From assembly GCF_024502345.1 (NCBI RefSeq), contig NZ_JALDNN010000001.1: DNA of 64,000 nucleotides, one strand, 5' to 3'. Below the pieces are notes generated by a model that was given only the letters and a program-made list of their open reading frames with translations, made no database searches and was not told where the DNA came from. The position numbers and the translations under genes were made by a program. This document shows positions 55,240-55,390 of this stretch, in pieces; position 1 is the stretch's first letter; the number at the start of each line of letters is the position of its first letter. Source of the DNA: Escherichia coli. Lineage in GTDB: Bacteria > Pseudomonadota > Gammaproteobacteria > Enterobacterales > Enterobacteriaceae.

Positions 55240-55390
55240 CAAATTGCTGACAAGTGCTTGTTGTGAAATGCCGGATGCGGCGTAAACGCCTTATCCGGCC
55301 TACAAAAGCATGTAAATTCAATATATTGCAGAGTTCACGTAGGCCTGATAAGCGTAGCGCATCAGGCAGTTTTGCGTTTGTTCATCAGCC
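55240..55390. repeat. composite REP/BIME cluster, paralogous to 30062-30210
   Basis: REP palindromes atgccggatgcggcgtaaacgccttatccggcctac and gtaggcctgataagcgtagcgcatcaggc with the same flanking blocks as the 30-kb copy. Confidence 0.8.

Follow-up and report, generated by a model that had tools for sequence, protein, structure and literature searches.

A composite REP repeat of the BIME-1 type between the convergent genes ybiA and rhlE of Escherichia coli

RESULTS

Anatomy of the ybiA-rhlE spacer

The stretch of DNA analyzed here (the window, 64,000 nt) is E. coli chromosome that is 99.5% identical to its K-12 relatives and is reversed in orientation relative to K-12 coordinates. Near 55 kb, ybiA on the plus strand and rhlE on the minus strand converge across a spacer of 231 bp. 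The initial annotation had placed a composite REP/BIME unit in this spacer, at 55240-55390. The unit was present as claimed, and we set its boundaries at 55240-55392 (153 bp). Its five parts are, in order, a left arm, a Y REP, an L linker, an inverted Z1 REP, and a right arm (29, 35, 35, 30, and 24 bp, respectively). The element starts 51 nt after the TAA stop codon of ybiA, which was checked in the sequence, and the stop codon of rhlE occupies 55420-55422. The features of the locus are as follows.

54706-55188, plus strand: ybiA, N-glycosidase YbiA; context gene (ORF list and RefSeq annotation of matching E. coli records)
55240-55268, plus strand: left outer arm, 29 bp, CAAATTGCTGACAAGTGC...; family consensus TCAGATTGTTGACAAAGTGCGCTTTGTTCA
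55269-55303, plus strand: Y-type REP palindrome, TGCCGGATGCGGCGTAAACGCCTTATCCGGCCTAC, with CTAC at its end; 35/35 identical to the published Y
55304-55338, plus strand: L linker, 35 bp, AT-rich, with an IHF-like core ATTCAATATATTG at 55316-55328
55339-55368, minus strand: inverted Z1-type REP, GTAGGCCTGATAAGCGTAGCGCATCAGGCA on the plus strand; the published Z1 matches 30/30 at 55338-55367 (minus strand)
55369-55392, plus strand: right outer arm, GTTTTGCGTTTGTTCATCAGCCTG; family consensus nTTTTGCGTTTGTCATCAGTCTCA
55393-55413, no strand assigned: rhlE-proximal hairpin, ATGCCGGGC-ATA-GCCCGGCAT, with a 9-bp stem and a 3-nt loop, in the rhlE 3' UTR
55420-56784, minus strand: rhlE, ATP-dependent RNA helicase; context gene (ORF list and annotation)

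The reference Y and Z1 REP sequences were those in the methods of Durrant et al. 2024 (PMC11208160). The Z1 REP also contains the natural IS621 target ATCAGGCCTAC, at 55339-55349 on the minus strand. The IHF-like core of the linker, as read from the sequence, agrees with WATCAANNNNTTR at 12 of 13 positions; owing to this one mismatch, the L linker was not listed in a scan of the window for the exact IHF consensus. No match to a Z2 REP was found within 55240-55392, and the 231-bp spacer holds one Y, one L, and one Z1 only, indicating a single unit rather than a tandem array. The reading of a REP/BIME composite between the two convergent genes was therefore confirmed, with an exact Y REP, an exact inverted Z1 REP, an L linker, and conserved arms. 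The outer arms would correspond to the A/B motifs. In the K-12 RefSeq annotation, no repeat feature is listed for the ybiA/rhlE spacer.

Two further sequences near the element were observed. Just past the ybiA stop codon, GGCTTATGGGCGGTAAAAC at 55198-55217 bears a weak likeness to the reverse-complemented right arm (GGCTGATGAACAAACGCAAAAC), and both segments were base-paired with each other in the predicted RNA fold; the resemblance may be due to chance or may reflect a decayed older arm. At 56981-56996, in the rhlE-cecR divergent promoter region and a few bases before the cecR start, two overlapping exact matches to the IHF consensus on opposite strands (AATCAATCATTTG / AATCAAATGATTG) form a palindrome, which could be an operator or an IHF site.

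Identity of the element as a single-copy BIME-1

BIME-1 elements, known since 1991-93, are defined by a y REP and an inversely oriented z1 REP with a long, well-conserved L linker between them; the linker frequently carries an IHF site, and the elements are single-copy and ~140 bp long (PMC3333891, PMC2817692, PMC1187871). Synonyms of BIME-1 are RIB (Boccard and Prentki 1993) and RIP (Oppenheim et al. 1993). The 55-kb element resembles the BIME-1 of Gilson, Bachellier, and Hofnung in having one Y REP, an inverted Z1 REP, and a long L linker with an IHF-type core, in being a single unit of about 140-150 bp, in its extragenic position at the 3' end of transcription units, and in occurring in many copies per genome. 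All the sequence-level characters of BIME-1 (Y, inverted Z1, L linker, single, extragenic 3' position) were found in it, and no structural difference was observed, the predicted IHF core standing one mismatch from the consensus. The convergent 3'-end position of this element and of the second copy in the window, at 30 kb (described below), agrees with the RIB paper as far as its title goes.

The relation of the element to REPINs (Bertels and Rainey 2011), which are mobilized by RAYT / TnpA-REP, was also considered. As in REPINs, two inverted REPs can pair into one long hairpin. Presence/absence polymorphism was seen in BIME-1 copies at other loci (ysgA-metE and glmS-pstS). The difference is that, according to the literature, the enterobacterial doublets are asymmetric, Y being different from Z1. 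The literature places the cognate RAYT gene (yafM / tnpA-REP) in K-12, and it lies outside the 64-kb window. BIME-1 is the enterobacterial form of REPIN.

By contrast, BIME-2 and the arrays of the naRNA4/REP325 type share with the 55-kb element the Y REP and the extragenic location, but BIME-2 has Z2 REPs, short S linkers, and tandem arrays, and is bound by gyrase rather than IHF. Assignment to BIME-2 was rejected, as the element has no Z2, a long L linker, and a single copy. Taking the evidence jointly, the best explanation, which we hold with high confidence, is that 55240-55392 is a single-copy BIME-1 (RIB, RIP; a REP doublet of the REPIN type) of the dispersed Escherichia REP/BIME family. 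The element is real, ordinary, and already known as a repeat.

The window also holds REP clusters at 23334-23414 and 49995-50121, which reached the gathering score of Rfam naRNA4 (CssrE) with 79.6 and 78.4 bits, respectively. They consist of Y and Z2-type REPs (BIME-2-like) and are not BIME-1.

Distribution, conservation, and folding of the family

A blast search with 44 nt of the linker found a median of 17 places per genome, and at least 4, in 5,425 of 5,426 complete E. coli genomes; the median is a lower bound at the blast stringency used. A strict scan for the linker pattern in one-genome-per-species data yielded 29 further copies, all in Escherichia or Pseudocitrobacter, those in Escherichia coming from E. 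albertii, E. whittamii, further clades, and divergent E. coli. The scan pattern imposed the linker core, and conservation there is consequently circular; the REPs and the outer arms were not imposed, and both the REPs and the two arms were conserved family-wide, the left arm in most of the 21 aligned members. Two more copies were located on metagenome-bin contigs labelled Bacteroides (L012, uncultured) and Collinsella (L028), which are probably Escherichia DNA misplaced by binning error.

At the ybiA-rhlE locus itself, 4,323 of the 5,426 complete E. coli genomes (about 80%) have the uninterrupted series L linker, Z1 REP, right arm, hairpin, and rhlE, and an orthologous element is also present at this locus in E. 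albertii (L007).

The arms are imperfect inverted repeats of each other (TCAGATTGTTGACAAA versus the reverse complement TGAGACTGATGACAAA, 13/16 consensus positions by eye), so that the whole unit is roughly a 150-bp imperfect palindrome. In the consensus fold of the 21 copies, Y pairs with Z1 over 25 base pairs. When each REP was folded singly, the Y REP stem-loop had an energy of -21.3 kcal/mol (z -5.1) and the Z1 REP stem-loop one of -13.2 kcal/mol. No covariation was found in the REP stems among the 21 aligned copies, and the sequence data alone therefore do not show selection on RNA structure.

Insertions and replacements at ybiA-rhlE in other strains

In strain TW10828 (L033:2940-4225), IS621, of the IS110 family, interrupts the Z1 REP of the orthologous element at 55342/55343 in window coordinates. 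The junction reads cacGTAG / IS621 / GCCTGATAAGCG and lies at the position of the natural target noted above. In strain MS1170 (L032:1060-2500), IS1397, a BIME-specific member of the IS3 family, interrupts the Y REP loop at ~55286, with CGA repeated on both sides. The REP-specific insertion sequences IS621 and IS1397 use the element at ybiA-rhlE as a landing site.

Larger changes affect the ybiA side. In strain Z142-7 (L031:1651-2530), a RelE/StbE toxin-antitoxin module replaces ybiA and BIME-1 while the rhlE hairpin is kept. In O145/O157-type strains (O145 RM9154, L003:1-2500), an espX2 effector island replaces ybiA, BIME-1, and the hairpin, and in B2-type strains (SCU-112, L002:1505-1702) ybiA is a pseudogene truncated at the N terminus. 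On its ybiA side, the spacer is a hotspot of replacement. A clean empty site at ybiA-rhlE was not found; the strains that lack the element have the whole left side replaced.

Possible function of the element

Experiments at the level of the family have demonstrated binding of IHF to the linker and have shown that REP stem-loops stabilize the upstream mRNA and attenuate read-through with Rho. By analogy with this work, the L linker at ybiA-rhlE would act at the DNA level as a predicted binding site for the bending protein IHF between the two REP palindromes. At the RNA level, the transcribed element would form the tail of the ybiA and the rhlE messages alike. The REP stem-loops, preceded in the case of rhlE by the gene's own hairpin, would block 3'-to-5' exonucleases, and they may also dampen read-through into the opposing gene. 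Rho is probably involved in the latter, because the spacer holds no intrinsic terminator. The element itself would have arrived as a non-autonomous unit mobilized by a REP-associated tyrosine transposase. The supplements of Adams 2021, which were checked for locus data, mention neither rhlE nor ybiA.

The strains without the element, namely those with the O145/O157 island and Z142-7 with its toxin-antitoxin module, are viable, and any local function of the element must therefore be dispensable. Under one alternative, the element is a neutral relic, that is, a BIME-1 by descent that does nothing useful at the locus and has been kept since deletion is rare. The espX2 island, the RelE module, IS621, and IS1397 show that the locus has been remodelled repeatedly without obvious cost; the stems lack covariation, and BIME-1 elements are present or absent among isolates (PMC1187871). 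On the other hand, the full five-part structure has been kept since before the split of E. coli and E. albertii, the element is retained in four-fifths of the genomes counted above, and the family-level experiments do show IHF binding and effects on mRNA. We consider a neutral relic possible, if somewhat improbable; with the spacer being freely remodelled in other lineages, it is a serious rival on the question of function at ybiA-rhlE.

Hairpin beside rhlE and transcription termination

The initial annotation had also described a hairpin following the unit and overlapping the 3' end region of rhlE. The hairpin exists and is longer than described, with its stem of 9 bp. However, it does not overlap the rhlE coding sequence and lies in the 3' UTR, with 6 nt (AAAAGA) between it and the rhlE stop codon. 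The calculated RNA folding energy of 55393-55413 was -16.9 kcal/mol on the minus strand and -17.5 kcal/mol on the plus strand. In the 30-kb copy, the equivalent relative place is taken by another hairpin, and in strain Z142-7, which has neither BIME-1 nor ybiA, ATGCCGGGCATCGCCCGGCAT still adjoins rhlE. The hairpin thus belongs to the rhlE locus and not to the repeat.

Read along the rhlE strand, the sequence runs UAA-UCUUUU-stem-loop-CAUCAGGC, with the only U-run (UCUUUU) preceding the hairpin; on the ybiA strand, the hairpin stem is followed by AAAAGAUU. Hence, no U-tract is found 3' of the hairpin on either strand, and a terminator scan of the spacer (55189-55419) reported nothing. A canonical intrinsic terminator, whether formed by the hairpin or by the REPs, was rejected on these grounds. 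It is accordingly very unlikely that the element and the adjacent hairpin constitute a bidirectional intrinsic terminator for ybiA and rhlE, a role that would suit their position between convergent genes and their stable GC-rich stems but not the missing U-tracts, after the hairpin and the REP stems alike, or the empty scan. The hairpin resembles more closely the 3' stem-loops without U-tracts of Rho-dependent transcripts (Dar and Sorek 2018): it has a stable GC stem with no U-tract and lies directly past the rhlE coding sequence, with the REPs following. By this analogy, it may be assigned to that class.

The rhlE hairpin of E. albertii (L007:6296-6559) has the same stem with a reversed loop (GGGCTATGCCC vs GGGCATAGCCC), and the loop in Z142-7 is ATC. 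A reversed loop of this kind is the signature of a hairpin inversion or of an intrastrand template switch. Liang, Rudd, and Deutscher are said to have found in 2015 that REPs within 15 nt of a stop codon reduce translation via ribosome stalling. The rhlE hairpin, which is not a REP, starts only 6 nt past the stop codon and may be compared with such stop-proximal REPs.

Match to the small RNA family ES036/CssrF

Rfam RF02751, ES036 (CssrF), matched at 55304-55346 with 37.9 bits against a gathering score of 37.6, and no other part of this locus reached such a score in Rfam. A match in the 30-kb copy (30125-30167) scored 34.0 bits, below the threshold. The model is 43 nt long, and its printed consensus is the BIME-1 L linker plus GTAGGCCT. 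RF02751 in effect models the BIME-1 L linker, and its matches mark copies of the repeat rather than orthologues of one sRNA gene. In Shigella, CssrF was detected by northern blot as a transcript of ~290 nt from the dacB/yhbZ spacer. That detection, together with a score that just reaches gathering, is what would speak for the 55-kb element being an ES036/CssrF-type small-RNA gene that gives rise to a separate transcript and acts in trans. Such a gene is highly improbable here, since the model would match every BIME-1, the 30-kb copy falls below the threshold, and no promoter-like or terminator-like site was found in 55189-55419. The locus thus shares with ES036 (CssrF) the gathering score but differs from it in having no independent transcription signals, and an independent sRNA gene was rejected as the primary reading.

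Comparison with the copy at 30 kb

The second copy in the window has the following position.

30062-30213, plus strand: second BIME-1 copy, between convergent ybiU and ybiT (K-12 annotation); same orientation and same five parts as the 55-kb copy

It contains an exact Z1 REP at 30159-30188 and a Y REP with three mismatches at 30090-30124. In a pairwise alignment, the two units were identical in 128 of 154 columns: 22/29 in the left arm, 32/35 in the Y REP, 26/36 in the L linker, 29/30 in the Z1 REP, and 19/24 in the right arm. When only the non-REP columns were counted, 67 of 89 matched, compared with 45.7 +/- 3.3 (maximum 58, 2,000 draws) for random segments of the same length from the window. 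Similarity beyond the REP cores, without which the initial annotation would have given up its claim of a second copy, is therefore present. The flanks of the two copies diverge right at the edges of the unit.

The earlier description of the two copies as partners holds as family likeness but not as a special pair, since unrelated loci of other Escherichia species hold copies that are equally close to each of them or closer. In the family alignment, nine other copies were nearer to the 55-kb copy than the 30-kb copy was; the 30-kb copy shared 82-86% identity with copies from unrelated loci of other species but 75% with the 55-kb copy. That local duplication or gene conversion made the two a locus-specific pair, as their spacing of 25 kb, shared orientation, and shared non-REP sequence might suggest, is hardly credible given these closer relatives elsewhere, the immediate divergence of the flanks, and the several L-linker places (at least 4, median 17) in every matching E. 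coli genome. The 55-kb and 30-kb copies are fellow members of a multi-copy family.

Duplicated hairpins around BIME-1 in other Escherichia

In other Escherichia species, at about 9 of 20 independent loci, a local terminator hairpin of 19-25 bp was directly duplicated around BIME-1, in the arrangement A-run plus hairpin / BIME-1 / hairpin plus T-run, with the repeats abutting the ends of the element. In 12 of 27 copies, the direct-repeat score between the copy's own left and right flanks was above the 99th percentile of cross-locus comparisons. The score of L029 reflects the linker of a neighbouring BIME-1; the other 11 are hairpin repeats from about nine loci. In these, the gap between the left repeat and the left end of the element is no more than about 1 nt (up to 4 nt at the tandem L018 locus), and the right repeat starts at the element's right end. 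The loci are as follows.

Duplication loci: L009:3989-4252; L006:2327-2590; L017:5795-6058 and 7657-7920; L016:12543-12806
Duplication loci (continued): L018:7820-8252; L004:9541-9804; L011/L020; L013
Empty sites: L034:340-520; L035:230-420

At two loci, BIME-1 is filled in E. albertii and empty in E. coli. In the ysgA-metE spacer, E. albertii has CGGGTGGCgttGCCACCCG-a-[BIME-1]-CGGGTGGTgttACCACCCG, and the E. coli site, shorter by 171 bp, has a single CGGGTGGTattACCACCCG. In the glmS-pstS spacer, at the glmS terminator, E. albertii has ATGCCCTGCgaaaGCAGGGCAT-[BIME-1]-ATGCCCCGCttacGCAGGGCAT, and E. coli EC1515 has the first hairpin only. In both pairs, the filled site differs from the empty one by the element and one additional copy of the hairpin. 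The additional copy may stem from duplication of the target hairpin upon insertion; alternatively, the single hairpin of the empty site may have been restored by deletion between two copies.

At neither copy in the window was a second hairpin found, and to the left of the 55-kb copy, the flank score was at background. We tentatively propose, as a rather unlikely account, that BIME-1 inserts directly beside terminator-type hairpins and duplicates the whole hairpin as a long target-site duplication, the rhlE hairpin then being a surviving copy. To our knowledge, the mechanism by which REP doublets insert has never been demonstrated. We found no published description of the flanking hairpin duplication in the literature covered; the BIME papers of the 1990s fall outside that coverage, and novelty is therefore not claimed.

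DISCUSSION

The 55-kb element is a textbook enterobacterial repeat, and flagging it is useful for annotation, as the K-12 RefSeq record shows no feature in this spacer. For annotators, the ES036 "sRNA" match at 55304-55346 is a warning, as it is a match to the repeat. The element matters for the way in which the rhlE and ybiA messages end, and it bears on why the spacer is a hotspot for insertion of IS621 and IS1397 and for replacement by islands. Duplication of hairpins at BIME-1 insertion sites would bear on the mechanism by which REP doublets insert, and it would matter more than the 55-kb element itself should it turn out to be undocumented.
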